Shown: positions 1 to 40,065, numbered from the stretch's first letter. The stretch: 60,003 nucleotides of DNA from a virus (IMGVR_UViG_3300037408_000429:1-60003); one strand, 5' to 3'. The notes: generated from the sequence alone by a model not told the origin. Numbers and translations: made by a program.

Positions 1-12
1 GCCGGCGGGCGC

Positions 13-123
13 TGTCCGTGCAGGCTCCGCGGCGCGTCCAATGGCGGTCGGCGTCCGCCGCGGTCCCAGCTTGCTGCTGCCGCCACCAGAAGCAAGCTGC
101 CGCCGATACCTTGGGCTGGTCCT
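13..123. repeat. Terminal direct repeat, left copy (111 bp)
   Basis: TGTCCGTGCAGG...GGGCTGGTCCT is identical to 59872-59982. Confidence 0.9.
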
Positions 124-861
124 CCCTCCCTCCCTCCCCCCGGGCAACGGATGCCCGGAACCCACCCGACCATGCGAACGATAGGCGAATCCCGGCCACA
201 ATCTGAGCGTGATGATGTAGATATGCTCCGAAATGATGGATAAGTCTTGTGTTTACAGCACATGCCAAGGTTACATAATGGTCATTATCGAAAGCTGGAA
301 ACTGAATGCAAGTGTTGTGCCAAACCCCTAAACCCTGTTAATACTCTGTAAATGGCCCTAGGATCGTTTGGGATGTGCCCGGGCCACTACCGCACCACCC
401 AGGACCAAACGGACGATCCTGGGGCATCCTGGGGCCACAAATCCAGGACAGGCTCTACTTGCGCGGGTGACGCCGAGCCGGGGGTTGGGGCAAAATGCGT
501 CTCTCTCTGTCTACTTTTTAGCCACTCTTGATTATTTCGGCGATGTAATGATAGATATACTGGGCCTTGTGAGTTTTCCCTTGGTCCTGAGGCTTGGGTG
601 TTGAGGATTCTGGGCAATCAGTCCATCAAAAGAGGTAGAGATCCAATCAACAGACAAAATCCAGGACAACAACAAAACAAATAATTAAACAAATCATTTC
701 AATCAATTCATTTCTATACATTCGTGCAATTCTCCCATACGTGTGCAGGTAATCATTTATCTCTATAAAACGCGTATGCGTGCATAGGCATGCCCAGGAC
801 ACGATTGTATGGTTTTGTCCTGATTGGATCCTTAGTCTGAATTATTTTTCAGGTTGGGGTC

Positions 862-889
862 TTGACTTTTGCCTGCACGGCCGTAATTT
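862..889 (+). promoter_or_regulatory. Putative sigma70-like early promoter
   Basis: TTGACT-16 nt-TAATTT downstream of an AT-rich non-coding region and upstream of the first + strand genes. Confidence 0.35.
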
Positions 890-1158
890 GGTATTGCCGA
901 GGGAATCGACCCAACGCCAAAGCGGAGGTATGCCATGAAAGAGCTCGCGTTTGAGCTGATCTGCCTCATCTACTTCCTGGTCACCGGACAGGATGGGTTG
1001 TGATGGGCGGGGTGTGTAATGGATCTTAGCGGCGGAACACAACAGTCATTCCCCTGGGCCGAGTATCAGCCCGAGCTGACAATCCCGGCCGAGAACCAGG
1101 ACAAAGAAATTCCCGCGGAAGAATTCATCCGGCTCTACTTCCCGGCGATGGTGATAAA

Positions 1159-1593
1159 ATGAGCATCGACTGGTGTTTCGGCTCGAAACAGTGGCAGGAG
1201 TATTATCACGGCCGCAACAATGGGCACCGGGCCAAGGGTGATCGTGCTGCGCGGGCCCGGAAGGCATCCCTGGCCGCAATCAGGCCGCGGGCCATGGCAA
1301 CATGGGATGAACAGCGATCAAACGACCTGAGGGCCGAATCTGAGGCCCTGGCCGCCCTGGAAAATGCATGCCTGGACCTGTCCCTGGACCAATGGAACGA
1401 GGATCACGAGACCCCGGCCGCAATGGCCAACGCCATGAGGTGGATGATGAGCGAGAATCTGAACATCGAAGAGCCTGGACAAGACGCCTATGACTACTGG
1501 GCCCTGGTCTGTTTCGAGCTTGCCCTGGAGGACTGCGATATGGAGCTGGCCGACGCCCTGGAGACCCTGGAATCCCTGGAGGTAGCATCATGA
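1159..1593 (+). CDS. Hypothetical early protein (acidic)
   Basis: 144 aa ORF; ATGA overlap with next ORF. Confidence 0.7.
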   Translation: MSIDWCFGSKQWQEYYHGRNNGHRAKGDRAARARKASLAAIRPRAMATWDEQRSNDLRAESEALAALENACLDLSLDQWNEDHETPAAMANAMRWMMSENLNIEEPGQDAYDYWALVCFELALEDCDMELADALETLESLEVAS

Positions 1594-1796
1594 GCGCCAT
1601 GCGACATCTTGGGCAATACATCTGGACGGCACCAGGGAAAGCTCCTCATGCCGTCCATGTCTACTCTCTGGCCGTTCCTGGCACGAGCCAGGACAGGCTT
1701 TACCGCTGGTCGGTCGTCGCCGGGCGCTACTTTCCCCTGAGGCGATCAGTCTTTGAATCCCAGATGGTCCCCGTTGAGGGAGGGGGTAGGCCATGA
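1590..1796 (+). CDS. Hypothetical early protein
   Basis: GGAGG RBS, ATGA coupling on both sides. Confidence 0.6.
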   Translation: MSAMRHLGQYIWTAPGKAPHAVHVYSLAVPGTSQDRLYRWSVVAGRYFPLRRSVFESQMVPVEGGGRP

Positions 1797-2035
1797 GAAC
1801 CTTCAGTCAATTCCTCGAGTCCCAGGGCTTCCAGGCTGACGCATGCGAGGATCTTGAACACCCCGACTTCTATCGACTGGCAGAACGCCTATACCTGACA
1901 TTGGAGAGGATATCGCTCATGGCGTGTCGGTGCGTGGATGATGGTACGCCTTGCAGTGGTTGCACCAAGACAGGCCGTGAGGCGCCCAGGGTGGCTTGGG
2001 CCGCCATCAAGCCGATCCATCCGGAGATCCCATGA
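1793..2035 (+). CDS. Hypothetical early protein (Cys motifs)
   Basis: ATGA coupled; CRC..CSGC. Confidence 0.6.
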   Translation: MRTFSQFLESQGFQADACEDLEHPDFYRLAERLYLTLERISLMACRCVDDGTPCSGCTKTGREAPRVAWAAIKPIHPEIP

Positions 2036-2238
2036 AACTCGCCGAACACAATGCCGCTTTTGGGGCGAAACGTCGCCCGGACGAGATCGTACTGTGTAAC
2101 ACCATGGGCTATGGTGAGATCAGCCAATACGACAGCCGATGTTCCTGGTGCTGGCTTGGGCACGATCACCGCTGGGCAACCCATGACCAGAGCATCAATA
2201 CATTCTGTGCCTGCGAGGCCGACCATGCTGGGAAATGA
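2032..2238 (+). CDS. Hypothetical small Cys/His-rich protein
   Basis: Start MKLAEH coupled to the upstream stop (ATGA), GGAG RBS. Confidence 0.5.
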   Translation: MKLAEHNAAFGAKRRPDEIVLCNTMGYGEISQYDSRCSWCWLGHDHRWATHDQSINTFCACEADHAGK

Positions 2239-2431
2239 GATCATACTCGACACCCCCGCCATCCTTGAGGCCCTGGATGGCCACAACGAAAGCTACAACC
2301 TAGCCGCCCGAATGGCCGCCCGTGACCTGCGAGGCATGCCAGTACGGGCCCTGCCTGTGGTCACCGGCAACGCCTGTCCCCCAAAAATCTTCGTGCTGGT
2401 CCGACTCCGGGCCATGTTGATGAGGTAACCC

Positions 2432-2746
2432 ATGAACAACGTTGCGAACACAATACTGAGTCAACTTGGCGGCGGACGGTTCCGCCTGATGACTGGAGCC
2501 AGGGACTTTGTGGGATCCAACAATAGTTTAGCCTTCGCCCTGCCGCAGGGTTTCGCCAGGGACGGTATCAACCGGGTCCGAATTGTTTTGGACGAAACGG
2601 ACACCTACACAATGCAGGCCCTACACGTCAACATGAAGGGCGCCAGGAAAGGTATCGCGTCCATCGTCCATGAGACATCCGACCTTTACACAGAGGACCT
2701 CCAGCGGATCTTCACGGACTGGACCGGCCTCGATACCCATCTTTGA
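2432..2746 (+). CDS. Conserved phage hypothetical protein
   Basis: ANTILSQLGGGRFRLMTGA...DTYTM...FTDWTGL pattern typical of a widespread phage early-gene family. Confidence 0.7.
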   Translation: MNNVANTILSQLGGGRFRLMTGARDFVGSNNSLAFALPQGFARDGINRVRIVLDETDTYTMQALHVNMKGARKGIASIVHETSDLYTEDLQRIFTDWTGLDTHL

Positions 2747-2758
2747 TATGGAGCCTTC

Positions 2759-3019
2759 ATGCCCGGACGAGCCCATTTCTACGCCCTTGACACCCGCAAC
2801 CACGAGCTTGCGCTCTGGCGGTTCAGATTCCGCCAGGAGCGGGACCGCTGGGTGCAGGACGACACGCGCAGACACGCCCTCCACCAGGACATAGCCAAAG
2901 CCTGGCAGACGCGGATCGAAAAACTGCATGCCGCCGTGTTCTACTGGCGCCCGTTTATGGTTGATGGTGGGGGCACGGGTGAGCTTTGGCATCCTGCCGC
3001 GCCAAACCACAGGAGCTAA
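2759..3019 (+). CDS. Hypothetical protein
   Basis: GGAG RBS; in early operon. Confidence 0.55.
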   Translation: MPGRAHFYALDTRNHELALWRFRFRQERDRWVQDDTRRHALHQDIAKAWQTRIEKLHAAVFYWRPFMVDGGGTGELWHPAAPNHRS

Positions 3020-3020
3020 C

Positions 3021-3236
3021 ATGCCCAAACGCTGGGGAAAACGCACAGCGAACCTGACGGACGACCGCCTGGAGGAACTCCTGGAGTTCCGGATGCCCGA
3101 TTTCAAGGTCTTGGCGCACCGCTGGGACTGCTCTGCCCGGTATCTGGAGCACGTCTGGCACAGAGAGACGCGGCGGCTCCACAAACGCGAATCACCAAGA
3201 AAGAACAGCTTGGCGATCCTTCGGCGAAAGCCTTGA
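3021..3236 (+). CDS. Hypothetical basic protein, possibly HTH
   Basis: AGGAG RBS before MPKRWGK; 3' part of ORF 2928-3236. Confidence 0.5.
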   Translation: MPKRWGKRTANLTDDRLEELLEFRMPDFKVLAHRWDCSARYLEHVWHRETRRLHKRESPRKNSLAILRRKP

Positions 3237-3261
3237 TTGCAAATCCGTCTCGACTTATCTT
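3233..3261 (+). promoter_or_regulatory. Putative promoter upstream of the cassette arrays
   Basis: TTGATT-17 nt-TATCTT(GG); same -10 context as 12857. Confidence 0.4.
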
Positions 3262-3303
3262 GGGAGTGCAGCAGGAAACGCCGTTTGGCCAAAGAGGGTA
3301 GAA

Positions 3304-3522
3304 ATGATAGATAACTGCATCGCGCATTGGTTCAAAACAACCAGAGTCCCCGGCGGATGCACGGTCAAGCGCATGTTTTTGCGCTTCCGGCATCAACACC
3401 TAGGTGAGCCCGTATCTGAGGCCAAAATCGAACGGATCATGAAGGATCTTGAGGCCCGCGGCGAGGCCGAGCGCTACGGCGCCTATTGGTGGCCGATCAA
3501 GCTAACCGGCGCTGCCGCGTGA
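3304..3522 (+). CDS. Hypothetical protein
   Basis: 72 aa ORF ending inside the first partial attC-like site. Confidence 0.5.
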   Translation: MIDNCIAHWFKTTRVPGGCTVKRMFLRFRHQHLGEPVSEAKIERIMKDLEARGEAERYGAYWWPIKLTGAAA

Positions 3523-3580
3523 AAGGAGAAACATGAAAAACGAGCAGGCCCTTGGGTCCGAGTGCAGCGCCGGGTTAGGC
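3498..3580 (-). mobile_element. Partial attC-like site #0 (left core box lost)
   Basis: CAAGCTAACCGG...GGTCCGAGTGCAGCGCCGGGTTAGGC; 29 bp identical to the right arm of site #1. Confidence 0.7.
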
Positions 3581-3604
3581 GGTGCCGAATGATGAGGAGA
3601 GAGT

Positions 3605-3793
3605 ATGAAAGTGATGATTGATGACGTTGAGTACATACCGGCAGAGCCCGCGCTCGACCTGTTTGGAGACGGGGTGAAACACGCCTGCAAGATGCTAGTG
3701 AGATACATGGAACGCGAGAATGTGGACCTGTTGGACATGGGAGCCGTTGAACTAACGGCGATTGTTAGAGCAGAAATGAAACGTGACGCCTAA
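3605..3793 (+). CDS. Cassette-borne hypothetical protein
   Basis: GAGGAG RBS; stop TAA lies in GCCTAAC of site #1. Confidence 0.7.
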   Translation: MKVMIDDVEYIPAEPALDLFGDGVKHACKMLVRYMERENVDLLDMGAVELTAIVRAEMKRDA

Positions 3794-3916
3794 CGGCTCA
3801 AGCTCACCGGCCCAGCCGCCAGCGAATAGATAAAAGGAGATGAGATGAACGAACCTGTAAGCAAAACTGATGAGTTGCCAGTCACGGCTGGGTCCGAGTG
3901 CAGCGCCGGGTTAGGC
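3788..3916 (-). mobile_element. attC-like site #1 (129 bp)
   Basis: GCCTAAC...GCTCACCGGCCCAGCCG / CGGCTGGG-T-CCG-A-GTG-C-AGC...GTTAGGC imperfect palindrome. Confidence 0.85.
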
Positions 3917-4093
3917 GCGTGCTGCTTTGTGGATGGGAAATTGACCGACGATCCATACCCCACAGCCGAACAATGCACCTGTGGCGGGAATCTCGAATTT
4001 GAGTATGGGTTTTGCCGACACGGGCTCGGGGTTTTCGAACGGTGCGTGGATTGTGGCACGGTCTTTAACTTTCACAAGGACACGGGCGGATGA
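3845..4093 (+). CDS. Cassette-borne Zn-ribbon-like protein starting inside attC #1
   Basis: AAGGAG RBS and ATG in the hairpin loop; CTCG and CVDCG motifs. Confidence 0.65.
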   Translation: MNEPVSKTDELPVTAGSECSAGLGACCFVDGKLTDDPYPTAEQCTCGGNLEFEYGFCRHGLGVFERCVDCGTVFNFHKDTGG

Positions 4094-4094
4094 C

Positions 4095-4115
4095 GCCTAA
4101 CGACTGAGTTGATTC
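4095..4115 (-). mobile_element. Lone core site / possible attI-like end of first sub-array
   Basis: GCCTAAC right after an ORF stop with no matching right arm; minus strand GAATCAACTCAGTCGTTAGGC. Confidence 0.45.
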
Positions 4116-4133
4116 TGTCCAGAAAGGTGAGCC

Positions 4134-4307
4134 ATGTCTTACAATCCAAAATGGTGGCGCATCTGGAAACGTGCCGCCGTGAGCAAAAACTCCCGCACCA
4201 CGAAAGCATCAGAACGTCGCCTTCGCTGGCAGTGGCGGCACGCCGCGAAGCGCGGGCGCTGGATAGCTGACGTGATATACGGCGGAATCCGTCATCCCAG
4301 GCACTGA
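4134..4307 (+). CDS. Small basic Trp/Arg-rich protein (57 aa, not in ORF track)
   Basis: AAAGGTGA RBS; MSYNPKWWRIWKRAAV...HPRH*. Confidence 0.55.
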   Translation: MSYNPKWWRIWKRAAVSKNSRTTKASERRLRWQWRHAAKRGRWIADVIYGGIRHPRH

Positions 4308-4323
4308 TGTCCAGGAGCAAGCC

Positions 4324-4605
4324 ATGAGCCTCGTGCCTATTCCACCACCTGGAGATATAGAGATTGAAATTAACGCTCTCCGAGCCCGCGTCGCAGAACG
4401 GGAGGCATTAATGAAATGTAAAAGGCACATAACAGTGAATGGCAGGTGCCCCGAGTGCCTGGAAGCCCGTGTAGTGGAACTGCTGGAAACGTTAGACCGC
4501 TACCGCAATGCACTGGAAGAACTCTACGGGGCGTCCATTGCCATGAACGAAGTTAATCTTCGCGGGTTCATTCGTGAAACCGTGAAAAACAGCATTGACA
4601 CCTAA
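4324..4605 (+). CDS. Hypothetical coiled-coil protein
   Basis: AGGAG RBS; stop TAA in ACCTAAC of site #2. Confidence 0.7.
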   Translation: MSLVPIPPPGDIEIEINALRARVAEREALMKCKRHITVNGRCPECLEARVVELLETLDRYRNALEELYGASIAMNEVNLRGFIRETVKNSIDT

Positions 4606-4695
4606 CGAAAGAGCTTAACTGGCGCTGGGGTTCGGCGCCTTGGAGGAACCGACCGGACGCAGAGCCCAGCGTCCGGGTAGAACGAGAGGTTAAGC
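4600..4695 (-). mobile_element. attC-like site #2 (96 bp)
   Basis: ACCTAAC...TGGCGCTGGG / CCCAGCG-T-CCGG...GTTAAGC. Confidence 0.8.
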
Positions 4696-4697
4696 GC

Positions 4698-4850
4698 ATG
4701 TGGAAGGTGTCTTGGCTTTGGACATTCTGGGCCATCGGTATTGTTTGGGATGCCCCGCACTACTGGAGGCATTGGGGGAAGTTCATCGGCCTCCATTTGG
4801 GGCCATTATGGATCGCGTATCACTCGGAACGAGACTATTTCGACACCTAA
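4698..4850 (+). CDS. Cassette-borne Trp-rich 50-aa protein (not in ORF track)
   Basis: MWKVSWLWTFWAIGIVWDAPHYWRHWGKFIGLHLGPLWIAYHSERDYFDT*; fills the space between two attC-like sites exactly, stop in ACCTAAC. Confidence 0.65.
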   Translation: MWKVSWLWTFWAIGIVWDAPHYWRHWGKFIGLHLGPLWIAYHSERDYFDT

Positions 4851-4905
4851 CGATTGGCATAACCGGCACGTGGAACACGTGTCCGTGTTCAAGGAGTGGT
4901 TAGAC
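4845..4905 (-). mobile_element. attC-like site #3 (61 bp)
   Basis: ACCTAAC...AACCGGCACGTG-GAA-CACGTG-T-CCG-T-GTT...GTTAGAC. Confidence 0.8.
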
Positions 4906-4921
4906 CGATTGGGAGAAATCT

Positions 4922-5380
4922 ATGGGACTTACTCTTGCGCCAACGACCTATGAAGAAGCCTGTCATTTCGTTGGTTTGCATCACCGGCACCATACCCCGC
5001 CGCAGGGCTGGAAATTTGGCATTGCTGCCTGTCTTGACGGAAAGGTCGTCGGAGTAGTGATGGTTGGCCGCCCCGTTGCCCGCCATGCCGATGACGGCTG
5101 GACGCTGGAGGTTACTCGATGCTGCACCGATGGGACCCAAAACGCATGTTCGACGCTTTACGCAGCTGCTTGGCGAGCTGCGAGGGCACTTGGATACCAC
5201 AGGCTTATCACGTTCACCCTGCCACAAGAAGGAGGCGCAAGCCTTCGTGCCTCGGGTTGGCGGGAACTTTACCGAACGAAGGGCGGGTCTTGGGACCGCG
5301 AAGACCGGCCCAGGGTAGACAAACATCCGACCCAGCCAAAAACACTTTGGGAAATTACGGATCATAAGGAATCGGCCTAA
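4922..5380 (+). CDS. XF1762-family protein (GNAT/Mom-like fold), cassette-borne
   Basis: HHRHH..P.G.KF, GRPVAR..DDG.TLEVTR.CTDGT.NACS.LY, E.GASLRASGW motifs; stop in GCCTAAC. Confidence 0.75.
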   Translation: MGLTLAPTTYEEACHFVGLHHRHHTPPQGWKFGIAACLDGKVVGVVMVGRPVARHADDGWTLEVTRCCTDGTQNACSTLYAAAWRAARALGYHRLITFTLPQEGGASLRASGWRELYRTKGGSWDREDRPRVDKHPTQPKTLWEITDHKESA

Positions 5381-5471
5381 CGTATGGAGTTAACCGGCGC
5401 TTGGGCTGCCGGACCTAGAAACTTGCCGGACGCCACAAGCCCAAGCGTCCGGGTTGAACGCCTGGTTAGGC
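5375..5471 (-). mobile_element. attC-like site #4 (97 bp)
   Basis: GCCTAAC...GTTAACCGGCGCTTGGGCT / AGCCCAAGCG-T-CCGGGTT-G-AAC...GTTAGGC. Confidence 0.85.
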
Positions 5472-5485
5472 GTGTGGAGAACAAA

Positions 5486-5629
5486 ATGGATTTTGATCGA
5501 TTTGAACGGAACCACAACCGCGCGATGCGCTTCGGTTTCTTGGCAGTGATCGTGAACGCTGCACTTGGTCTTGGACTTTTGGGAACAATCATCTGGGTTG
5601 CCGCGCATTTCTTGAAGAAGATTTGGTGA
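5486..5629 (+). CDS. Cassette-borne small membrane protein (47 aa)
   Basis: GGAG RBS, MDFDRFERN..., one hydrophobic helix. Confidence 0.7.
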   Translation: MDFDRFERNHNRAMRFGFLAVIVNAALGLGLLGTIIWVAAHFLKKIW

Positions 5630-5630
5630 A

Positions 5631-5717
5631 GCCTAACGCCCGGAGATAACCGGCGCGGGACGGACGAATGGATGAGCTGGCGGTCAAATCCGCGTCCGGT
5701 TCATCGACTGGTTAGGC
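5631..5717 (-). mobile_element. attC-like site #5 (87 bp)
   Basis: GCCTAAC...GATAACCGGCGCGG / CCGCG-T-CCGGTT-C-ATC...GTTAGGC. Confidence 0.85.
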
Positions 5718-5762
5718 CGCACGGGACGAGATGTTAAGAAATCCTTTACAACTGGAGGAACG

Positions 5763-6002
5763 ATGGGAGCGAAGATTAGCGATGTTCTAAGGAAAGAAGG
5801 GCATCCTGGTTATGCCATTGATGTAGCCGCTCTTGAGAATTTGGTGGTGAAACTACGGAATGACCTTGAAGCCATGACCGCCCGTGCCGCCATCAACGGC
5901 AAGATTGCGATGCGCTATCAAGACGCCCTGGAATACGTTAGGGACTACAGCAATGACCCCGGTGTTGTTCAACGTGCCAAGGATGAACTGGGTGCGGCCT
6001 AA
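5763..6002 (+). CDS. Cassette-borne hypothetical protein
   Basis: GGAGG RBS; stop in GCCTAAC. Confidence 0.7.
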   Translation: MGAKISDVLRKEGHPGYAIDVAALENLVVKLRNDLEAMTARAAINGKIAMRYQDALEYVRDYSNDPGVVQRAKDELGAA

Positions 6003-6120
6003 CGCCCCAAGCTAACCGGGGCAACAGCCAGCACCAGCTTGCGGGGAGATTGGAAGGACGAATGCATGAAGGAGGAATCCTGTAAGTGGCTGTTGGCTCC
6101 GGTTGAGCGTGAGGTTAGGC
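5997..6120 (-). mobile_element. attC-like site #6 (124 bp)
   Basis: GCCTAAC...GCTAACCGGGGCAACAGCCA / TGGCTGTTGGC-T-CCGGTT-G-AGC...GTTAGGC. Confidence 0.85.
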
Positions 6121-6147
6121 GGGGACGAAAACTTGAGGAGAAGGACC

Positions 6148-6336
6148 ATGGATGAAACCCAAACCATTGAAGTGAGGACATCGGATGACTACTACCGGCT
6201 GAAAATGTTGGTAGCAGAACGGGACAAATACAAGAAAGCATTAGTGAGGATCCAGGATGTGTGTTTTGGATCCAGTTCCCAATCGGAAGTTGAACATTTT
6301 GCCTATAACACGTCGAAGGCTGCATTGGACGCCTAA
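6148..6336 (+). CDS. Cassette-borne hypothetical protein
   Basis: GAGGAG RBS, MDETQT...; stop in GCCTAAC. Confidence 0.7.
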   Translation: MDETQTIEVRTSDDYYRLKMLVAERDKYKKALVRIQDVCFGSSSQSEVEHFAYNTSKAALDA

Positions 6337-6388
6337 CGAACCAAGCTAACCGGCGCCGAAGGCGTCCGGTTGAGCGCGAAGGTTAGGC
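6331..6388 (-). mobile_element. attC-like site #7 (58 bp, minimal 59-be-like)
   Basis: GCCTAAC GAACCAA GCT AACCGG CGCC GAA GGCG T CCGGTT G AGC GCGAAG GTTAGGC. Confidence 0.9.
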
Positions 6389-6400
6389 GGGCCAGCACAA

Positions 6401-6751
6401 ATGAAAGGAAATTCGATGACGATTGACGAACTGAAAGCACTGGAACGGAAGGCAACTCCTGGACCATGGGACAATCCAGAATGGGATGCCGTAGAGCGTT
6501 TCTATGACGTTTGCGCGGGAATTGGTAGTGAACAGCATCAAGTATTTGTCACTCAAGATATTTGCAGCAAGAATGCAGGAGAAAACGCCAGGTTTATCGT
6601 GTCTATCCGCAATCTTGTGCCCGAGTTCCTGGCGCTGTGGGAAGCCTGCAACGAACCTGCGCCCAGAGCGGATAGAGGCGCTGAATGGATGGAACGGATC
6701 GTCCATGCTCGGAATGACCTGAATTTTAAGGCAGCAAACATGGACGCCTAA
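6401..6751 (+). CDS. Cassette-borne Ead/Ea22-like phage protein
   Basis: ELKALERKATPGPW...NARFI...RN motif; stop in GCCTAAC. Confidence 0.65.
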   Translation: MKGNSMTIDELKALERKATPGPWDNPEWDAVERFYDVCAGIGSEQHQVFVTQDICSKNAGENARFIVSIRNLVPEFLALWEACNEPAPRADRGAEWMERIVHARNDLNFKAANMDA

Positions 6752-6772
6752 CTTTGAATTAGGCGAACTGGA
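6746..6772 (-). mobile_element. attI-like site at the array end
   Basis: Minus strand CAGTTC-GCCTAAT-TCAAA-GTTAGGC: L box, 5-nt spacer, GTTRRRY; resembles the class 1 attI core CAGTCG-CCCTAAA-ACAAA-GTT. Confidence 0.65.
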
Positions 6773-6874
6773 CGCGCTCCTAAATTAGAGCAAACACATA
6801 CTGCGTCTCAACACAAACCCAACAAAATCAACACGGAACCGCCGTAAAAACAGGTAAATGAGACCGGATGGAAT

Positions 6875-7075
6875 ATGAGCAAAATAAGCAACGCCAGAGC
6901 GGCGAAGGTGCTGGACAAGCGCCTGGAATTCCTCGAAGAATACATCCGCAGCTATGAGTCTGAAACCGGGAACGCCTGCGGGTTTGCCCGAGAGGAATTC
7001 AGGGCACTGACCCAGGCCACGGTGAGCTTGGGGCACCCCACGGAACGCACCGTTCCCAAATTGGAGAGACCATGA
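6875..7075 (+). CDS. Hypothetical protein
   Basis: ORF coupled to next. Confidence 0.6.
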   Translation: MSKISNARAAKVLDKRLEFLEEYIRSYESETGNACGFAREEFRALTQATVSLGHPTERTVPKLERP

Positions 7076-7299
7076 GCGAACAACAAAGCATCGACCTGAG
7101 TCTTCAGGCCGAATCCCTGCGAAACAAGGGGGCGGCCATCCTGGGCAAGATGATTCCAGACGCGGACAAGGGCATGATTATGGAATTCATGCACTGCGCC
7201 ATAGGGTCCGCGCTGCTTGAGATCATGTCTATCCAGGCGTTATACCAAGAACCAGTGCCCGAAGAAGATCCTGCCGAAGGACTTGGCGGGACGGACTAG
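7072..7299 (+). CDS. Hypothetical protein
   Basis: GGAG RBS, ATGA overlap. Confidence 0.6.
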   Translation: MSEQQSIDLSLQAESLRNKGAAILGKMIPDADKGMIMEFMHCAIGSALLEIMSIQALYQEPVPEEDPAEGLGGTD

Positions 7300-7459
7300 G
7301 AGCGAATCGTGTCCACAAAATGTTGCCTGCTCACCAAGAATGGCCCCAGGTTTTTCGACCGGCTCCAGGATCTCGAAGCCTACGCCAAGGAACATGGGCT
7401 ATGGGACGAAGAGAACTGGCGCGAGTCCATGAACGCACTACTCGAAAAGGAGAAACAAA

Positions 7460-7945
7460 ATGTCAACAACGCCTGAAATCAAGATCCCGTGTTTCCACCC
7501 AGGAGTCTTCGCCATCGCCCTGGCGCTTCAAAACACCTTCAACACCCAGGAAGGTTTCGACTTCGTACCTGAAAAGGTCATGAAGGACACCCTGGAAGGG
7601 AGACCCGTGCTCGACTTGGTCAAGGGGTATGAGCTGGCGCAGTGGTGGGATCTCATGGCGCGGGCCTACCCAGAGACCAACAAACTCAAAATCACCACCG
7701 TGATGGCCTGCGAAGGCGCCGTGATGGCCAAGCCTGTAACCGAATCCTTTCTGCATTTCCAGGTAGCCGTGGATCCGGTGAACATGGTGGATCAACTGTG
7801 CCAGAAGTCCGTCGGGTATCTGTGCAAAGCATGGCCCGACTTTTTTAAGGCCGCTTCCAGCACGAGGGAACATCGGATTGCATCTGAAGCCACGGCTGGC
7901 GACAACATCTCGCCATTGCTTCGCGGAAGCGAGGAGGTTCAATGA
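7460..7945 (+). CDS. Hypothetical protein
   Basis: AAGGAG RBS, 161 aa. Confidence 0.7.
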   Translation: MSTTPEIKIPCFHPGVFAIALALQNTFNTQEGFDFVPEKVMKDTLEGRPVLDLVKGYELAQWWDLMARAYPETNKLKITTVMACEGAVMAKPVTESFLHFQVAVDPVNMVDQLCQKSVGYLCKAWPDFFKAASSTREHRIASEATAGDNISPLLRGSEEVQ

Positions 7946-8445
7946 GGATCTTCACAAGCATGGGCGAGATGCAGGTCCAGCTTCAACGTCTGCACGATCT
8001 GACCAGTAGGCCATGCTGGGGCGCAGATGGAACACCTTTCCCGGAACACTTGCCCATGGACAAGATCGTGGAGCGGTGCGCGATCAATCTGGAATCACAA
8101 TACGAAAATGCCGGTGAGAACCTTGTTCGACGATTAGACGACATGGCGACCACGATTTCCACCGGGCTTATGAAGATGGTCCACGCCATGCCTGGGACAT
8201 CAAGCACGGACAATAACACGAGAGCATTCTACGTATTCTTTGGTGCCTTCTGCTTCGCCGAACTGCCTACCCAAGAAGAGGCCGACCAGTGGATAGAGGA
8301 ACTATTAGATACCATCAAACAGTTCGCCATGGCCCAGGTCCACGAATCCTTTTCTGCCGCCTTAGACAATCGCCCCGCCAACTACATCGACCCCATGACC
8401 ATGACTATCGGAGGAATCTATGAGGATTCTGAAACTACAGGCTGA
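7942..8445 (+). CDS. Hypothetical protein
   Basis: GAGGAGG RBS, ATGA overlap. Confidence 0.7.
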   Translation: MRIFTSMGEMQVQLQRLHDLTSRPCWGADGTPFPEHLPMDKIVERCAINLESQYENAGENLVRRLDDMATTISTGLMKMVHAMPGTSSTDNNTRAFYVFFGAFCFAELPTQEEADQWIEELLDTIKQFAMAQVHESFSAALDNRPANYIDPMTMTIGGIYEDSETTG

Positions 8446-9784
8446 CAACTTCAAACGACTGAAGGCCGTTGACATCACCCCGAAGGGGGCCATTGTCCCG
8501 ATCACCGGCAAGAACGCGAACGGGAAGACCAGTGTCCTGGATGCGATCTGGGCGGCCCTGGGTGGGGCATCTCACATCCAGTCCGAGCCTATCCGGAAGG
8601 GCCATAACAAGGCCAAGATTCGCCTGGACCTGGGTGAGATCGTCGTCACACGGTCCTTCACCAAGGGCGGGACAACCCTGGCGGTCGAGAACAGCGAGGG
8701 TCTGCCCTACAAGAGCCCCCAGAAGATGCTCGATGATCTAGTGGGGGCACTGAGCTTCGACCCTCTGGAATTCACCCGGATGAAGCCGCGGGACCAGTAC
8801 GACACCCTGCGGGCCCTGGCCAAGGTGGAGATCGACATCGACAAACTGGATGCCCAGAACCGGGCGGACTACCAGCGTCGAACCGACATCAACAGGGATG
8901 CCAAGCTGCTTCGAGCCCAGGCCTTCGGGATCCCCACCGTGGAGGATCCCGGTCCCGCCGAGGACAGCGTGGAAGTGTCCGATGCGCTGCGGGCCCTTCG
9001 TGAGGCCAAGGACGAGGCCCGGGCCCAGAATGACAATCGCGCCGAACTGGAATGCACCATCGAGGCCAAGCGGGCCATCTTCACCCAGAAGCGGCAAGAG
9101 CTGGTCGAACTGAAGGAGTCCATCTCTGCGCTTGAGGACACCCTGTCTTCCATCCCGGTGACCGCAGACACCATGGCGCTCGACAGCCGGATCCTAGAAT
9201 TGGAGACCACCCTTGCCCAGGCCAGCGCCCGAGCAGAGGCCAGGAATGCCCACCTTTTGACGATCCAACGCAAGAAGGACCTGGAGACCGCGGCCGAAAC
9301 CAAGGAAAAGGAATCCGAAGACCTTACTGCGGCCATGGAAGCGCGAGAGAAGGCCAAGCAGGACGCCATCGCCAGGGCCGACATGCCCATTCCTGGTCTG
9401 TCGTTCGGGGAAGGCATGGTCCTATTCAATGGCGTGCCCTTCGATCAGGCATCCAGCGCAGAACGACTCAGGGTTTCCACGTCCATCGCCATGGCGGCCA
9501 ACCCAAAGCTGCGGGTGATTCGCATTGAGGATGGGTCCCTGCTGGACAGCGACTCGATGGATCTGCTCACCCAGCTCGCCACCGAACACGACTTCCAGGT
9601 GTGGATTGAGGTTGTGGACGGTTCTGGCAAAGTCGGCGTCTTCATCGAGGATGGGGAGGTCAAAGCCGACAACCAGGACGCGGCAGAGAAGGACGCCCCG
9701 CCCGAGACCGAACGGACGTTGAACGAAACAGAACTGCCGTCAACGAACGTTGAACGGACGTTGAACGATCTCGACATTCCCTGA
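8420..9784 (+). CDS. SMC/RecF-like AAA ATPase with coiled coil
   Basis: NFKRLK, Walker A GKNANGKTS, long coiled coil, ASSAE signature-like and IEDGSLLD Walker B-like. Confidence 0.85.
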   Translation: MRILKLQADNFKRLKAVDITPKGAIVPITGKNANGKTSVLDAIWAALGGASHIQSEPIRKGHNKAKIRLDLGEIVVTRSFTKGGTTLAVENSEGLPYKSPQKMLDDLVGALSFDPLEFTRMKPRDQYDTLRALAKVEIDIDKLDAQNRADYQRRTDINRDAKLLRAQAFGIPTVEDPGPAEDSVEVSDALRALREAKDEARAQNDNRAELECTIEAKRAIFTQKRQELVELKESISALEDTLSSIPVTADTMALDSRILELETTLAQASARAEARNAHLLTIQRKKDLETAAETKEKESEDLTAAMEAREKAKQDAIARADMPIPGLSFGEGMVLFNGVPFDQASSAERLRVSTSIAMAANPKLRVIRIEDGSLLDSDSMDLLTQLATEHDFQVWIEVVDGSGKVGVFIEDGEVKADNQDAAEKDAPPETERTLNETELPSTNVERTLNDLDIP

Positions 9785-26106: not shown

Positions 26107-29100
26107 CTACTCCTGTCCGCCTTCTTCCTTCTCGTCCGCGAGATGCCTGCGAACGGTCTTGGAAGCCGTGTTTAGTTTGGAGTACCATGCTATGGCGTCA
26201 TCAACGAGTTCTCGATCATCCTTGTTTAGAGAGTTGAGAAACTGTCTACGCCATTTCAACGGCACAGATCCCAGTGGATGTGCGGCCTTGACCGATTGAC
26301 GAATGGACGAAGGCTTGCCGCCCAGTCTGTAATACTCTTCGAGCCAGTGTTTTGATTTTTCTTCGTCACCCCATTGTGCTGCTCGCTTGTGATAGTAGAG
26401 AGCATTGCCCTTCTCCGTTGAATTTCCGCTGTATTCGAATTCTCTGTGCTTGGAATTCTTTAGCCACGTTACCGCCAGATCCCTTGTCAGATAGTAGGAC
26501 GCTTCCCCGGGGTCCGTTGAATAGATCACGAGCGCATCCATGAGAGATTCCGCAGTGCCGGCCTTTCTGGCGGGTTTGTCGGTGACCTTGTTCCAAAGCT
26601 TGTCCAGGGGAGCTACGTTTCTGGCCAGGTAGGCGACTCTGTCTCGAATAGGTTGCCCTCCAGGCTGTAAGCTGGCTCCTTTTTTCCATATAGAAGGATA
26701 GGCAGATCTTCCAAGCGTGATCTCAAAGATAGTCTTGCTTACCGGTTCCCACCCTTGCAGGATACGCTCTACAGGGGCTTTGGCCGCATTGGCAGCTATG
26801 TCCTTGACGGTTGTTTGACCCTTGTTTAGATCCTTCATTTGAGAAGTGAAGTCGCTCAAGTTGAACCAGTCCAGGGCGTCCACCAGTGCGCCGTCCATGC
26901 GGATGTAGCGAATGGATCCGTCAGGACGACGCCCCAGAACCAGGAAGTTCTTCACTCTGGTTGTCCGGCGTAGCAATTCTGTTTCCTTTGGATACCGCTT
27001 GTTGTTCCACATCCACATGAGCGCCAGAAGCAGGTTGATCTTCAAGGCGAACAAGGCATACCTGGTTCCGATCCTGAGACCCAGAGAAGCCGCTGTTCTT
27101 CCTATGCGAGCCGACCTGCTTCCGTCCTCGTAGGCCGTGTTCTTGAAAAGGCGCATGTAGCGGGGCGCGTTGATTTCTGTCCAACTATGGAACGGACGAA
27201 GGTGCCGGCGAATCCACATGCCAGCCAAACTCACGTTCCCATAGTCTCCAATGAGCTCTCTTGATAATTTGGCCGCTTTGTCATCCCGTGTCTTCAGGGC
27301 ATCAATCTCATTGCGCTTGGATGCCGCATACATCGTCTTGCCTTTGGCGAGTTCATTCTGGAAGAACCGATAGGCTGCAAGGCGCAGAATGTTTTCTCGC
27401 CATGACGTAAATGCCTTTAGCCCTCCCCATACCTTCTGGATAGCGTTCCCGTTGGGGCGGTCGCTGGTCAGAAGCCTGAATGCTCCTTCCTTGTCGATGT
27501 CGGGAATTTCGGTAATCGTTAGCCCGGATTCTACGACACCGACTTTGACCGCATGTTGCATTTCAGCCTGCATGCCTTCTGGGGCGTCGTGTGTAACCTG
27601 GTAGCTCCATAGGTCGCTGGCTGCCTTCATGAAGTAGCTAAGTATCCTGGGATCATAGGCCAGTGCGATGTCAAGATCTCCGCTTAGGTTGTTCATGTTG
27701 TAGCGCAGGACCCGCATTGGACTGATTAGCTGCCACTGCTTCCAGGTGCTTTGGGCACCCACCCAGAAGCGTTCTACCGCGTTGCGATCCTGGCTCTTGA
27801 AGTTGTTGAGTTGAGCAGCCAAATTGCTAGGAATGACCCATTCTGTTTTCTTTGAGCCCAGGGCCAGAAGGGTCCGAATGTCTTCCTTCTCCAGCTGCTT
27901 ATTCCCGGACATGACTTTGTCCAGCACACTTTCCTCGACGGTCATAGCAGGGAAGAAGTGGCTCCCTTTCTCTGGCTGCCAGATGGTGTAGTCTTCTGGA
28001 ACCATGTCTTTCCAGGTGGTGAACTGATCCCCAAGGATTTCCCTGATCTCGGACGCGCTGTAATCATCCGGATTCATGCCCCTGTCGATCATGGCCTGTT
28101 CGTTCACATCCTTCGCTATTTGCTTCAACTGGGGCTTGATGTTGGACGATTGGTCCAATCGGTCCAGGGTTTCCTTTTTGATTAGGATAGCCATGGCGTC
28201 GGAAAGCCACTCGAACTCGGCCTGTTTGTAGTCCGTGTTGAAGTCGTGGGCCCCGCCCTTGCGCCCGATCTGGAATCCCTTCTTGTGCGCGTGGAGGTCT
28301 GATCCAACGGCCCCGGGAAAGCTTTCTCTGTCTCTCAGGTAGTCCATGACCTGGCGGTGGTAGTAACTCTCCACGTTCTCCAGTGTCTCACTTGGTAACA
28401 GTCCATTCATCACCAGGGATTCAACCACCGACCGGGACTGATCGTTCCTGATTTTCAAGGCATCTGCTATGGCCTTGTTGGCTGGGTCATTCAGGATTTT
28501 CTCAAACTTGTCCAGGTCTTGACGGGCATGGTCTACGCTCTTATATCCGAATGGCAGTTCGCCCGTTCCATCGTCTATCCCTTCATCGACGTTACGAATG
28601 ATATCCCGAGTGATTATGACCCGGTTCATCAAGTCCTGCTGTGCTGGAGACATCTTCCTCACTACGTTGGCTACCATGTCATGGGCCACCGTCTTGGCGT
28701 AGTTTGCTCCGGCCTCATACTGGCGCAGGTAATCCTGAACGAGCGCCATCTGTGCGCTGTCATTGGGATTTATATACTCGAAGTGCCGCAAGAATGCCTC
28801 CTTTACTCCGCGCAGGCCTTCTCCAACCCTCTTCCATGTTGATTCGGACACGACTCCCTTGTTGGCCTGGTATCTTTTCTCTACTTCTGCAAAGTCAGAT
28901 GCAACAATCACTGCCCCATTGTTTTGGCGCTTACCAAACAGGTCATACAAGAACTTTGACAGAGGGCTCGTAAAGCCATAGGCCATCTCTGCTTCTTGCT
29001 CCTGGTCTCGCTTGGAATCAAGATAGGCCGCAATCGCTTCCTGATAGGCTTCCCCGTGGCGTTCGTACCATTGTGGAGACAGCATGTCATCGAACCAGCG

Positions 29101-38910: not shown

Positions 38911-40065
38911 CTACTCCTTGACCCACTGGCCGTTCTGAATGATATACCAAGCCTTGTTTCCCTGTTTGTCGGAAAGCTGAATCCCCTGGTTCCCCTTGGG
39001 TGTTGGTCTCAGTGTAGGTGTTTTCTTGGGAGCATTAGCAGCAGCAGGAGCGGGAGCAGCAGGAGCGGGAGCAGCAGGAGCGGGAGCAGCAGGAGCGGGA
39101 GACGGCCATCCGGTCCCGACAACAAGCCTTTTGCGGGTTTTTTCTATGTCCTCTGGTGTTAGCTCGCTCTTGCCCATTTGAATGGCCAGGCGGATTGCAT
39201 CCCAGTACTCACGAGATTGCTTGCGGGTATCGTCCGCCCAGGATACGGCATCTGCCTCTGTTGCGAACATTTTACCATGTCCAACTTGGCTCTTGGCCCA
39301 GTTCACGCGCCATTGGAAGTTTGTAAGTTTGTTGCTATCCCTAGATGCCGTTCTTGCAGCACGGCTTTTTGCTATGTCCTCTATTTCCTTGTTGTGTCTC
39401 GCCTTCTCTTTGTCTGCATCTTCCTTGCGCTTGTGTTCTTCGGTCTGCGCCCATCTCTGGCCGGAGGCCTTGGACGCATACTCAAGCCACTTGGGGACTT
39501 CCTCTGGTTTGGCGGCAGCGATTCCTAACATTTCTTGTGAGACGTGGACATGCTGTTCCTCTCCGGTGGCCGGGTTGATGGAGTAGAACGTCATCAGCCC
39601 CAAGGGATCTTGTTCTCCAGCCTCGTTGGTTGCGCGTTCGATGCGCGTAATTTTGCCAAAAGCTCCGGAGGCGTTCAGGGCTTCTACTGCCACGGGGTAT
39701 TGACCCATCATGGCGGCTTTGGCCCCCTGGGAGATCATCCCGAGTGATTGCGCCTCTTTGGCTTGCTTGGACATCCCGCGGTATTTCCTGGCGAGATCCC
39801 CACGGCCAGCCTGTTCTGCGATGTTAGCCAGGTTTTCAAGACGATCTGCGTCGGTCGCTCCAGGCACGTTGGCCTGGGAGATATCTTGCTCCTGGTTCTG
39901 CTGACTCATTTGCCGCTTGGCTTGGGATCTTTGTAGATCCTGCCAGTCCTGTTCCCGTCTCATCTCCTGACCCTGCACGATGCCCTGGGCACCCTGCACC
40001 AGCGCATTGCCAAGTCCACCCTGCACCAGGGGACTACCTGCCAAAATGTCACTCAGGCTAGCCAT
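38911..40065 (-). CDS. Internal virion/ejection protein
   Basis: Gln/Ala-rich helical protein upstream of the giant gene; start approximate. Confidence 0.6.
   Translation of the reverse strand: MASLSDILAGSPLVQGGLGNALVQGAQGIVQGQEMRREQDWQDLQRSQAKRQMSQQNQEQDISQANVPGATDADRLENLANIAEQAGRGDLARKYRGMSKQAKEAQSLGMISQGAKAAMMGQYPVAVEALNASGAFGKITRIERATNEAGEQDPLGLMTFYSINPATGEEQHVHVSQEMLGIAAAKPEEVPKWLEYASKASGQRWAQTEEHKRKEDADKEKARHNKEIEDIAKSRAARTASRDSNKLTNFQWRVNWAKSQVGHGKMFATEADAVSWADDTRKQSREYWDAIRLAIQMGKSELTPEDIEKTRKRLVVGTGWPSPAPAAPAPAAPAPAAPAPAAANAPKKTPTLRPTPKGNQGIQLSDKQGNKAWYIIQNGQWVKE
39041..39100. repeat. 15-bp tandem repeat x4 (PAPAA linker)
   Basis: GCAGCAGGAGCGGGA repeated four times. Confidence 0.9.

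Follow-up and report, generated by a model that had tools for sequence, protein, structure and literature searches.

In the phage record IMGVR_UViG_3300037408_000429:1-60003 of IMG/VR, the whole 60,003 nt of which we refer to as the window, small genes on the + strand alternate with attC-type hairpins between 3492 and 6764. The locus raises the question of which strand of these hairpins an integron integrase would recombine, and which gene would move with which hairpin. An earlier note on the same DNA had proposed that the attC polarity is inverted relative to the genes, each cassette consisting of an attC and the gene downstream of it.

The hairpin array and its genes

The earlier note had placed the array at 4600-6388. 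The hairpin array itself was recovered, while its start had to be moved: it begins at about 3492, comprises eight attC-type hairpins and closes with a 19-nt mini-palindrome, an attI-like site, at 6746-6764. GCCTAAC or ACCTAAC boxes start at 3788, 4095, 4600, 4845, 5375, 5631, 5997, 6331 and 6746, nine of the 11 CCTAAC occurrences in the 60 kb, and seven of these left boxes have a matching GTTAGGC-type box 58-129 nt to the 3' side, giving sites 58 to 129 nt long with terminal loops of very different length.

All features up to the attI-like site are on the + strand. The first site (3492-3580) is weak or partial, a proper left box being absent although L arms and a right box are present (19.7 bits, E 0.0068, with the covariance model R1 described below). 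A 19-codon ORF begins within its loop, and its right arm (3553-3585) recurs at 3889-3922. The following 62-aa cassette ORF (3605-3793), without Pfam or PHROG family match, has its stop codon supplied by the GCCTAAC box at 3788, as TAA, where the first of the folded sites starts (3788-3916; R1 42.1 bits, E 2e-8). The variable loop of the latter holds the ribosome-binding site and ATG (3845) of an 82-aa cassette ORF (3845-4093), the first approximately 24 codons of which are attC loop and right arm (..GSECSAGLG..); a related viral locus, L042, has a similar attC-encoded N-terminus. Next come an orphan left box, GCCTAAC at 4095-4101 with no hairpin 3' of it, and a 57-aa ORF (4134-4307) with no box at its 3' end.

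A 93-aa cassette ORF (4324-4605) takes its stop codon, TAA, from the ACCTAAC box at 4600, the start of a degenerate but folded site (4600-4697; R1 22.8 bits, E 0.0012), and a 50-aa cassette ORF (4698-4850) stops within the box at 4845, leading into a folded site, the + strand loop of which is GAA (4845-4905; R1 48.7 bits). The 152-aa cassette ORF at 4922-5380, with its stop within the box at 5375, encodes a Mom-like DNA modification protein (phrog_1384, E 5.2e-37; Pfam Mom 22.3 bits, under the 27.1 cut-off). It is followed by the site at 5375-5471 (R1 57.5 bits, E 3e-12; fold z-score -4.16), in the loop of which other contigs of wetland-metagenome runs have a 42-nt skip. A 47-aa cassette ORF with a hydrophobic stretch (5486-5629) has its TGA stop 1 nt 5' of the box at 5631 and precedes the folded site at 5631-5717 (R1 56.3 bits). 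The 79-aa cassette ORF at 5763-6002 stops within the box at 5997 and has a codon score of +17.3, the same score finding no rival frame on the - strand; the folded site thereafter (5997-6120; R1 44.2 bits) has a long variable loop. Finally, a 62-aa cassette ORF (6148-6336) stops within the box at 6331, the start of a minimal site with a GAA loop (6331-6388, site #7 of the earlier note; R1 53.6 bits), and the last cassette ORF (6416-6751; 111 aa counted from its ATG, in a frame open from 6401) stops within the box at 6746.

Upon DNA folding, each of seven sites formed a stem of the R boxes and an L stem, separated by an unpaired spacer. The + strand of 6331-6388 folds as (((((((.......(((((((((((((...)))).)))))).)))......))))))), with spacers of 7 and 6 nt, and its 3' arm has a T and a G as single-base bulges, just as drawn in the earlier note. 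The same right-arm layout, also described there for sites #4 to #6, was observed at 5375 (T,G,G), 5631 (T,C) and 5997 (T,G), the extrahelical bases of the + strand 3' arm coming after stem positions 17 and 23, approximately. The window sites thus combine pairing R boxes (RYYYAAC...GTTRRRY), an imperfect L stem, fixed bulges, a spacer and a variable loop, as attC sites do. A MAFFT alignment of long sites (A1) set the right arms in two registers, with 11 pairs by RNAalifold, and was replaced by one of 30 related short sites (A2). In the latter, 88.4% of the cells are paired (97.1% in the R helix), and 65 cells have changed on both sides compared to 20.9 ± 4.1 upon shuffling, with none of 500 shuffles reaching 65. 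The covariation score is 0.300, versus at most 0.08 with slid partners, and nine of the 11 L-stem pairs have changed on both sides.

An Rfam scan of the window returned no family at gathering score, and an attC model seems to be missing from Rfam. Comparison of 3000-9000 by blastn to named phages covered only 2-4% (the Mom-like gene and one short unrelated stretch), and promoters and terminators in 1-9000 were at chance level. Homologues of a neighbouring 454-aa phage protein (38-47% identity) were found at 16 distinct loci with 0 R1 matches, and the array is therefore not an old, conserved trait of that phage lineage.

Strand polarity in viral and bacterial arrays

According to Nivina et al. 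2016 (PMC5027507), the bottom strand is the one with 5'-AAC-3' in R', and the extrahelical bases (G16 and T23 in attCaadA7) sit on the arm opposite the AAC triplet. The rule that the earlier note had stated, with extrahelical G and T on the bottom strand of a canonical attC, agrees with this and with the aadA1 attC of In2 on plasmid R100 (NC_002134.1). The aadA1 site resembles those of the window in its R boxes, two-bulge L stem, short loop and a spacer that is one base longer on one side. Its extra bases are however in the left, 5' arm of the gene-sense strand, whereas every folded window site has them on the gene-sense 3' arm, opposite the 5' AAC.

Folding of both strands pointed in the same direction, the + strand being more stable at seven of seven sites, by a mean of approximately 2.0 kcal/mol. 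Plain-regex and fold-based site finders missed many sites, and we instead used R1, a covariance model of this strand. Over the whole window, R1 yielded eight + strand matches, all within 3492-6388 (E 3e-12 to 7e-3), and a single match on the - strand, site 6331-6388 with 19 bits versus 53.6 bits on the + strand. In three intI-anchored bacterial integrons, 64 of 64 R1 matches lie opposite the cassette genes, on the bottom strand, and the modelled strand is thereby the bottom one. Bulges, stability and strand-specific scores, the latter two named as checks in the earlier note, consequently agree in marking + as the bottom strand, in line with its claim of inverted polarity. As part of the explanation that we favour below, the coding strand of the phage genes is probably also the recombinogenic strand.

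The three bacterial arrays (L271-L273) are sedentary chromosomal integrons of Betaproteobacteria, Holophaga and others, with full-length intI (466-488 bits versus the 265-bit cut-off). They have the same attC family (R1 25-63 bits), GCCTAAC/GTTAGGC boxes, cassette-sized spacing and an attI core of the same kind, GCCTAA-N6-G|TTAGGC. Their genes, in contrast to those of the window, lie on the top strand (37 antisense versus nine weak sense calls, the latter in L273), and each ORF starts behind the attC of the cassette before it and extends to its own attC.

Is this opposition general? ORF length is an ambiguous guide to the coding strand in this G+C-rich DNA, and a codon log-odds score was used in its place. 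Viral inter-attC intervals were called sense in 230 cases, antisense in 13 and ambiguous in 32 of 275; bacterial intervals gave 14, 123 and 45 of 182, respectively. Strict thresholds left 161/1/112 for the viral and 6/81/91 for the bacterial set. Counted per locus, the sense to antisense ratio is 62:1 against 1:30 (Fisher 2.9e-22), in a sample that was fetched by a pattern from this window and therefore covers one attC type only, with 80 of the 120 bacterial loci searched. Hence, ORFs are on the bottom strand at 62 of 63 decided viral loci and one of 31 bacterial loci, as opposed to a canonical cassette, where the ORF lies opposite that strand. The reversal is systematic across about 80 viral loci. 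Bacterial arrays share the attC type with the window and with many further viral contigs but have the opposite gene polarity, and the inversion tracks the origin of the contig rather than the attC type.

Some cassettes of bacterial integrons are reverse-oriented as well, for example those encoding toxin-antitoxin systems with their own promoters. That a few cassettes carry promoters is stated in PMC5027507. Such cassettes share with the phage units an ORF on the bottom strand of their own attC. They are however exceptions within an array, whereas the whole window array and nearly all sampled viral arrays are reversed, and the phage arrays would be read by phage transcription from outside.

Cassette unit, end site and competing readings

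Window cassettes have almost no DNA or protein in common with other array loci, and unit junctions were for this reason mapped in relatives; the neighbour-gene loci, being devoid of R1 matches, could not serve. L042 contains an exact 367-nt duplication running from one GCCTAAC to the next, and L111 and L119 share a 343-nt unit (96.8% identity), all four ends of which are left boxes. No shared or duplicated unit runs from right box to right box, compared to these two that run from left to left, and among 77 shared segments the 3' end is on a left box in both loci four times and on a right box zero times. The junctions thus lie at the left-hand RYYYAA|C and not at the right-hand G|TT, congruent with the crossover at CCTAA|C, right after the stop codon, that the earlier note had predicted. 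Indeed, the next left box supplies the TAA stop codon in seven of ten window genes and 69 of 228 viral cassettes. Units bounded by left boxes, and gene starts overlapping an attC, also bear out its proposal that a cassette is an attC with its downstream gene.

The closing end of the array is informative too. Read on the - strand, 6746-6764 is CGCCTAATTCAAAG|TTAGGC, in the form GCCTAA-TTCAAA-G|TTAGGC, and can be compared to the attI of the three bacterial integrons (CGCCTAATACTTAG|TTAGGC, GCCCTAGTTTTAG|TTAGGC and GCTCAATTTTTAG|TTAGGC) and to attI1 of the R100 class 1 integron (GCCCTAAAACAAAG|TTAAAC), the core of which it resembles. This putative attI-like site is positioned as attI is in a canonical integron read on the top strand. 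In gene sense, 11 of 61 viral arrays have a site of this kind behind their last attC, and none of 65 has one ahead of its first. The - strand accordingly reads as an attI-like site and then cassettes of TTAGGC, content, attC and G, which is the canonical layout except that every ORF is reversed; in gene orientation the unit therefore becomes C, attC, downstream ORF and RYYYAA. Shine-Dalgarno motifs and start codons are found just 3' of the hairpin or in its loop, the TAA stop often coming from the next box.

With eight R1 matches within 2.9 kb and no intI in the record, the array falls among CALINs, clusters of at least two attC sites that lack an integron integrase, and no intI adjoins it as in a complete integron. 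Integron integrases above cut-off are also absent from five related viral records, of which three are 100% complete. The tyrosine recombinases of two related viral records score 59 bits, 38 bits or nothing on the integron-integrase model, against the 265-bit cut-off, and were set aside as ordinary phage integrases. Taken together, the best explanation of these sequence features, and one that we consider likely, is that 3492-6764 constitutes a phage-borne integron-type cassette array without integrase, a CALIN that has kept an attI-like end site, built of units of attC and downstream gene. In the same explanation, its attC sites are of the type often found in the chromosomal integrons of Betaproteobacteria and of some other bacteria from soil and freshwater.

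It is conceivable, albeit unlikely in our judgment, that the hairpins are attC relics or have taken on another role, as early-mRNA hairpins tuning translation or stability or as hot spots of homologous exchange, and are no longer substrates of IntI. Congruent with this, TIGR02249 (integron integrase) and PF00589 have no match in the 60-kb record, which is 84% complete by CheckV and may thus have an integrase in its missing part. Contigs of four wetland-metagenome runs containing the stretch, two of them possibly its source, likewise lack attC-attC joints, but break inside attC arms and are thereby uninformative on excision; look-alike attCs with other flanks are seen in these contigs. Furthermore, the hairpin strand is the mRNA strand, many loops hold a Shine-Dalgarno motif and ATG, the sites at 3492-3580 and 4600-4697 are degenerate and the box at 4095 is orphaned. 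A 64-nt attC core recurs in ten loci with half-boxes and genes differing on both sides, an arrangement that is uninformative on the side of the cut, and such identical cores could spread by homologous exchange. A relic or an mRNA element does however not explain why features of use to IntI only (AAC/GTT boxes, fixed bulges and spacer asymmetry) are kept in hundreds of viral sites, why an attI-like site is retained at just one of the two ends and why exact units end at the cleavage box. Moreover, IntI1 recombined other phage attCs in the assays described in the main text of PMC9892861.

We regard it as very improbable that the polarity is canonical after all, with + as the top strand, crossover at the right-hand G|TTAGGC and cassettes of a gene and its downstream attC. 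The + strand order of gene, RYYYAAC .. GTTRRRY and next gene, with stops in or adjoining the first box, does look like a normal array, and three shared segments (L039/L131, L076/L079 and L096/L135) have a right box at their start in both loci, the 5' end expected of a canonical unit. Yet + is identified as the bottom strand by its bulges, its GAA loops, the asymmetry of the spacer and the stability of the fold, the R1 matches that lie on the bottom strand of the intI-anchored arrays lie on + here, the attI-like site would be at the wrong end, and two units are bounded by left boxes, none by right boxes at both ends. A right-box cut would also detach the ribosome-binding site, start codon and N-terminus of the gene that begins within 3788-3916, and likewise affect 46 of 226 related viral cassettes with their start codon within the upstream attC.

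We attach hardly any credence to the idea that the true genes are on the - strand, the + ORFs being spurious and the array a piece of host integron taken up by a phage. Long open - frames, such as 4889-5365 and 5999-6325, occur in this G+C-rich DNA, and the codon score favored - in one interval. That interval is the Mom-like gene, where the PHROG match in frame 4922-5380 (E 5e-37) identifies a miscall, and five of the seven window intervals were scored as +. In addition, Shine-Dalgarno motifs precede + strand starts in the window, the ORF block that flanks the array on both sides (1159-9784) is on +, and the sense orientation prevails at the decided viral loci. The alternative of the earlier note, descent from an 'inverse' integron lineage with the platform itself reversed, has nothing further to commend it than the inversion and is unsupported and most improbable, as bacteria with the same attC type carry ordinary integrons (intI divergent from the cassettes, attI between them, genes on the top strand opposite the attC bottom strands) and the inversion goes with viral or bacterial origin.

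A possible mirror-image cassette pool

Returning to the explanation of a reversed phage CALIN, comparable arrays are known. The main text of Qi et al. 2023 (PMC9892861) describes phage CALINs, the attCs of which recombined with attI1 under IntI1. They resemble the window in having attC arrays among small ORFs in virulent and temperate phages without intI, accessory genes that include DNA-modification enzymes, and inverted GTTRRRY motifs at one CALIN border. In that text the arrays are however presented as typical cassette structure, whereas here they are reversed, with bacterial arrays of the same attC type as contrast. The passages of its main text on these arrays, as distinct from its supplements and figures, make no mention of reversed ORF polarity, ORF starts within attC or an attI-like end site, and within the same limits we found no reversed ORF polarity of phage arrays in the literature on phage attCs and CALINs, including bioRxiv 10.1101/2024.07.02.601686.

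How might such an array operate? In a host making integron integrase, the + strand hairpins would fold while the DNA is single-stranded, and IntI would cut the left box at AA|C. Exchange between two attCs could excise or duplicate units of attC and gene, and exchange between the attI-like site and an attC could add units to the phage operon at its 3' end. Phage transcripts initiated further upstream would then extend through the array, while phage units placed at a bacterial attI would be antisense to Pc. We infer from the sites that host IntI may act on them in the present day, and it is a reasonable supposition that the genes would be silent in a host integron and expressed in the phage.

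More tentatively, and with somewhat less than even confidence, we suggest that phages of integron-bearing bacteria keep a mirror-image cassette pool of their own, using the same attC and the integrase of the host but with genes on the recombined strand. The attC would here serve as 5' leader, ribosome-binding region and sometimes N-terminus, and the IntI of the host could shuffle the units among co-infecting phages, the units staying transcriptionally insulated from host integrons. This insulation, which belongs to the same tentative reading, would be mutual: a phage cassette at a bacterial attI would be antisense from Pc, and a bacterial cassette in a phage would be antisense as well. Another possibility is that, in this orientation, the bottom strand is the non-template strand displaced by heavy transcription of an early operon, which could favor hairpin folding within the short time of infection.

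Integrons are regarded as a bacterial device, and their cassettes were recently shown to store anti-phage defences. If the mirror-image arrangement is true, phages and bacteria draw on one recombination machinery and yet keep separate, oppositely written gene pools. The rule for annotation of viral contigs would change, with attC and downstream gene as the unit, and hundreds of small phage ORFs would be marked as mobile accessory genes. As one of the cassettes here encodes a Mom-like DNA modification enzyme, a role in counter-defence can reasonably be guessed for others. The arrays would furthermore represent a natural test case of which attC features set the choice of strand, and why orientation matters.

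Hairpins of the array and the identity of their recombined strand

Between 3492 and 6764, imperfect palindromes are interspersed with small ORFs on the + strand, with GCCTAAC or ACCTAAC at their 5′ ends and GTTAGGC, GTTAGAC or GTTAAGC at their 3′ ends. Single-stranded DNA folding of seven sites returned a common fold, in which an R stem of 7 bp is followed by an unpaired spacer, then by an L stem bearing one-base bulges and a loop of 3 to ~70 nt. The bulges lie on the 3′ arm of the + strand, as for T and C in site 5631-5717, for T, G and G in site 5375-5471, and for site 6331-6388, where the fold leaves unpaired the same right-arm T and G that the earlier note had picked out. The + strand folds more stably than the − strand in all seven sites (mean gain ~2.0 kcal/mol), and GAA loops are present in sites 4845-4905 and 6331-6388. 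When 30 related short sites are aligned, pairing is found in 88.4% of cells, both-sided changes occupy 65 cells versus 20.9 ± 4.1 in shuffles (0 of 500 as high), and covariation reaches 0.300 versus at most 0.08 with partners slid. R1, the covariance model derived from this alignment, detects eight sites in the window, all on the + strand and inside 3492-6388, the sole − strand match being a weaker echo (19 bits versus 53.6 bits for the same site on +). Thus, the palindromes are real and far above chance.

The available text of Nivina et al. 2016 (PMC5027507) characterizes the recombined bottom strand by 5′-AAC-3′ in R′ (5′-RYYYAAC-3′), extrahelical bases near L″ on the arm facing the AAC triplet, a better fold (by a mean of 2.12 kcal/mol, 263 sites) and often 5′-GAA-3′ loops; the + strand of the window displays all four features (AAC in R′, bulge arm, stability and GAA loops). 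The class 1 integron of plasmid R100 was read as a control for polarity. On the gene-sense strand its aadA1 attC reads GTCTAAC AATTC GTT[C]AAGCCG[A]CGCCGC TTCGC GGCGCGGCTTAAC TCAAGC GTTAGAT, with the extra bases in the 5′ arm, so that G and T bulge from the antisense 3′ arm. Relative to gene sense, the bulge layout of the window is reversed.

We then scanned bacteria, one genome per species, with a left-arm motif from the window. At least 120 stretches were recovered, among the matches listed mostly from Betaproteobacteria (Burkholderiales, Accumulibacter, Zoogloea, Gallionella, Nitrosomonas and others), with some from Gammaproteobacteria, Holophaga and other Acidobacteriota, and Nitrospirota. 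All five motif-bearing genomes tested contain an integron integrase, full length in three (466-488 bits versus a cut-off of 265), and split or at a contig end in the remaining two. The 17 kb beside each full-length intI exhibit the same order: intI is leftmost and lies on the − strand, next comes an attI-type sequence with G|TTAGGC at its end, and then the array. R1 has 64 matches in these three loci, 64 of 64 on the − strand; the position of intI, and not the bulges alone, thus identifies the R1 strand as the bottom strand. The bottom strand in the window is consequently the + strand, which codes for the genes. Bulges, R1 strand and intI-anchored arrays hence agree, confirming the inverted attC polarity proposed in the earlier note.

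Coding polarity in viral and bacterial arrays

Among the matches listed, R1 sites number 432 in 119 viral loci plus the window, and 287 in the first 80 of the 120 bacterial loci fetched; from two of the R1 searches the script received the best 150 matches each. After removal of eight redundant loci, the best ORF on each strand was compared for every interval between neighbouring same-strand sites, using codon log-odds trained on 514 ORFs of at least 350 aa from the same loci. At standard thresholds, 230 viral intervals were called sense to the bottom strand, 13 antisense and 32 ambiguous, versus 14, 123 and 45 for bacterial intervals. Strict thresholds, with identical intervals counted once, yielded 161 sense, 1 antisense and 112 ambiguous viral intervals, and 6, 81 and 91 bacterial ones. 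Per locus, the strict sense:antisense ratio is 62:1 for viral and 1:30 for bacterial arrays (Fisher 2.9e-22), these being statistical strand calls on loci labelled viral or bacterial by their collections. Within the one attC type sampled, via a motif from the window, the observation made on a single window is thus general: viral and bacterial arrays share one attC type, and their coding polarities are opposite.

The intI-anchored arrays gave sense/antisense calls of 0/15, 0/9 and 9/13, where the nine sense calls represent weak frames of 41-71 codons, six of them in copies of a repeated 271-nt cassette. The Holophaga chromosomal integron L273 (G006:C1:742400-759400) has many 271-nt cassette copies, with a convincing ORF on neither strand. 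In the window itself, the codon score called five intervals sense, one ambiguous and one antisense; the latter holds a Mom-like gene whose + frame matches PHROG 1384 (E 5e-37), so the antisense call is a score error. The cassette proteins of 3845-4093 and 4324-4605 are rich in paired cysteines (CC..C.C....C..C and C....C..C), reminiscent of small zinc-binding proteins, and match no family in Pfam or PHROG.

Unit boundaries and the attI-like end

Considering that the window cassettes have no DNA relatives among the sampled loci, junctions were instead mapped in related arrays, using a left box (RYYYAAC) and a right box (GTTRRRY), both in gene orientation. The viral locus L042 contains an exact 367-nt duplication that runs from GCCTAAC to the next GCCTAAC on the gene strand and encloses an attC and a gene, the ATG of which lies in the attC loop; the flanks differ immediately outside. 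Similarly, a 343-nt unit common to the viral loci L111 and L119 (96.8% identity) has left boxes at four of four ends, while the adjoining attCs differ. Both units favour the crossover put forward in the earlier note, at CCTAA|C after the stop codon. Across 77 shared segments (150-2000 nt, identity at least 85%, redundant loci removed), 3′ ends fall on a box in both loci four times for the left and never for the right box, and 5′ ends eight times for the left (four from one tandem array) and three times for the right. The earlier note had set right-hand G|TT junctions against its reading, and none of the 77 segments has right boxes at both ends. These sequence comparisons favour RYYYAA|C of the gene strand as the crossover point. 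A 64-nt attC core recurs with different half-boxes on both sides, and together with the three right-box starts shows that the boundary picture is not clean.

This core (L039 5512-5579, 7938-8005 and 9616-9679; also L131, L094, L132, L086, L064, L067 and L129) occurs at 95-100% identity in eight or more distinct viral contigs, in which the flanking genes are unrelated. It is reminiscent of the uniform attCs within a chromosomal integron, except that it is spread across different phages. A 33-nt direct repeat (97%) at 3553-3585 and 3889-3922 makes up the right arms of two distinct sites; it is in frame in both copies (..GSECSAGLG..), within a 19-codon ORF (3534-3593) and the 82-aa gene 3845-4093, and looks like a remnant of exchange within attC arms. 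At 5401-5444, within site 5375-5471, contigs of two runs have a look-alike of the site with 42 nt of the loop absent and different flanks.

Genes and hairpins overlap. In site 3788-3916, the SD and ATG (3845) lie in the loop, and the first ~24 codons cross the right arm and box, the latter read in frame as G-L-G; an N-terminus encoded in a similar way by an attC is seen for one gene of L042. The first SD-preceded start is inside the upstream attC in 46 of 226 viral sense cassettes, with a median start 24 nt behind it. Seven of ten window genes and 69 of 228 viral cassettes use the TAA of the following left box as their stop, and 74 more of the 228 stop within 30 nt of that box. A cut at AA|C keeps start and stop with the gene; a right-hand G|TT cut would behead the loop-starting genes.

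The last window gene has its stop in the box at 6746, behind which follows TTTGAA-TTAGGC without a hairpin (attI-like site, 6746-6764). On the − strand this array end reads CGCCTAATTCAAAG|TTAGGC, to be compared with attI beside intI in L273 (CGCCTAATACTTAG|TTAGGC), L272 (GCCCTAGTTTTAG|TTAGGC) and L271 (GCTCAATTTTTAG|TTAGGC), and with R100 attI1 (GCCCTAAAACAAAG|TTAAAC). In gene orientation, a site of the pattern GYCTAAC-TTTNNA-TTAGRC is located behind the last attC in 11 of the 61 viral arrays with downstream room, and ahead of the first in 0 of 65. Read on the − strand, the window thus has the full canonical layout, an attI-like site and then cassettes; it differs from a canonical integron in that intI is absent and all ORFs are reversed. 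The stretch behind the attI-like site (6765-6870) shares short motifs with L042 6029-6164 (..AAAACA(A)GGTAA(A)TGAGAC.. before the next gene), the latter being 94% identical to L111 9880-10031, which places the array at a conserved position in these phages at least.

Integrase source and distribution among phages

The window record is linear, with 60,003 bases (84% complete, CheckV), and encodes a terminase, a portal or adaptor protein, internal virion proteins, a DnaB-like helicase and a primase/helicase; no close relative was found among named phages. A single 4266-aa open frame occupies 26107-38907 (− strand) in the structural region, and at 39040-39100 a GCAGGAGCGGGAGCAGCA-type repeat run within a − strand ORF yields a low-complexity stretch of repeated short residues.

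The 84% complete record has no match to the integron-integrase model TIGR02249 or the general tyrosine-recombinase model PF00589, and five related viral records, three complete, have no integron integrase above cut-off. Tyrosine recombinases in two of the related records were rejected as integron integrases, scoring far below the integron cut-off. Since these viral records gave no integron integrase, bacteria with the same attC type possess IntI, and IntI1 recombined other types of phage attC in published assays (available text of PMC9892861), the recombining agent is most likely the integrase of the host. Joints between attCs were absent from array-bearing contigs of four wetland-metagenome runs. 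No attC sites are present in 16 loci that surround homologues of a neighbouring phage gene, hence the arrays are scattered among phages rather than inherited within the lineage of the window.

CALINs of phage genomes have already been described (17 in 10,705 genomes), and the available text of that study (PMC9892861) terms their layout typical and interprets inverted GTTRRRY motifs at one phage CALIN border as a terminator. The text passages covered by our literature search contained no report of reversed ORF polarity in phage arrays, of ORFs that start inside an attC, of an attI-like site at the array end or of a polarity contrast between phage and bacterium. The interpretation of the earlier note, where each unit comprises an attC and its downstream gene with crossover at CCTAA|C, is supported. 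Candidate reasons for the inversion in phages are that it would give insulation from the host Pc, or that the bottom strand would be exposed as the non-template strand of a heavily transcribed early operon.
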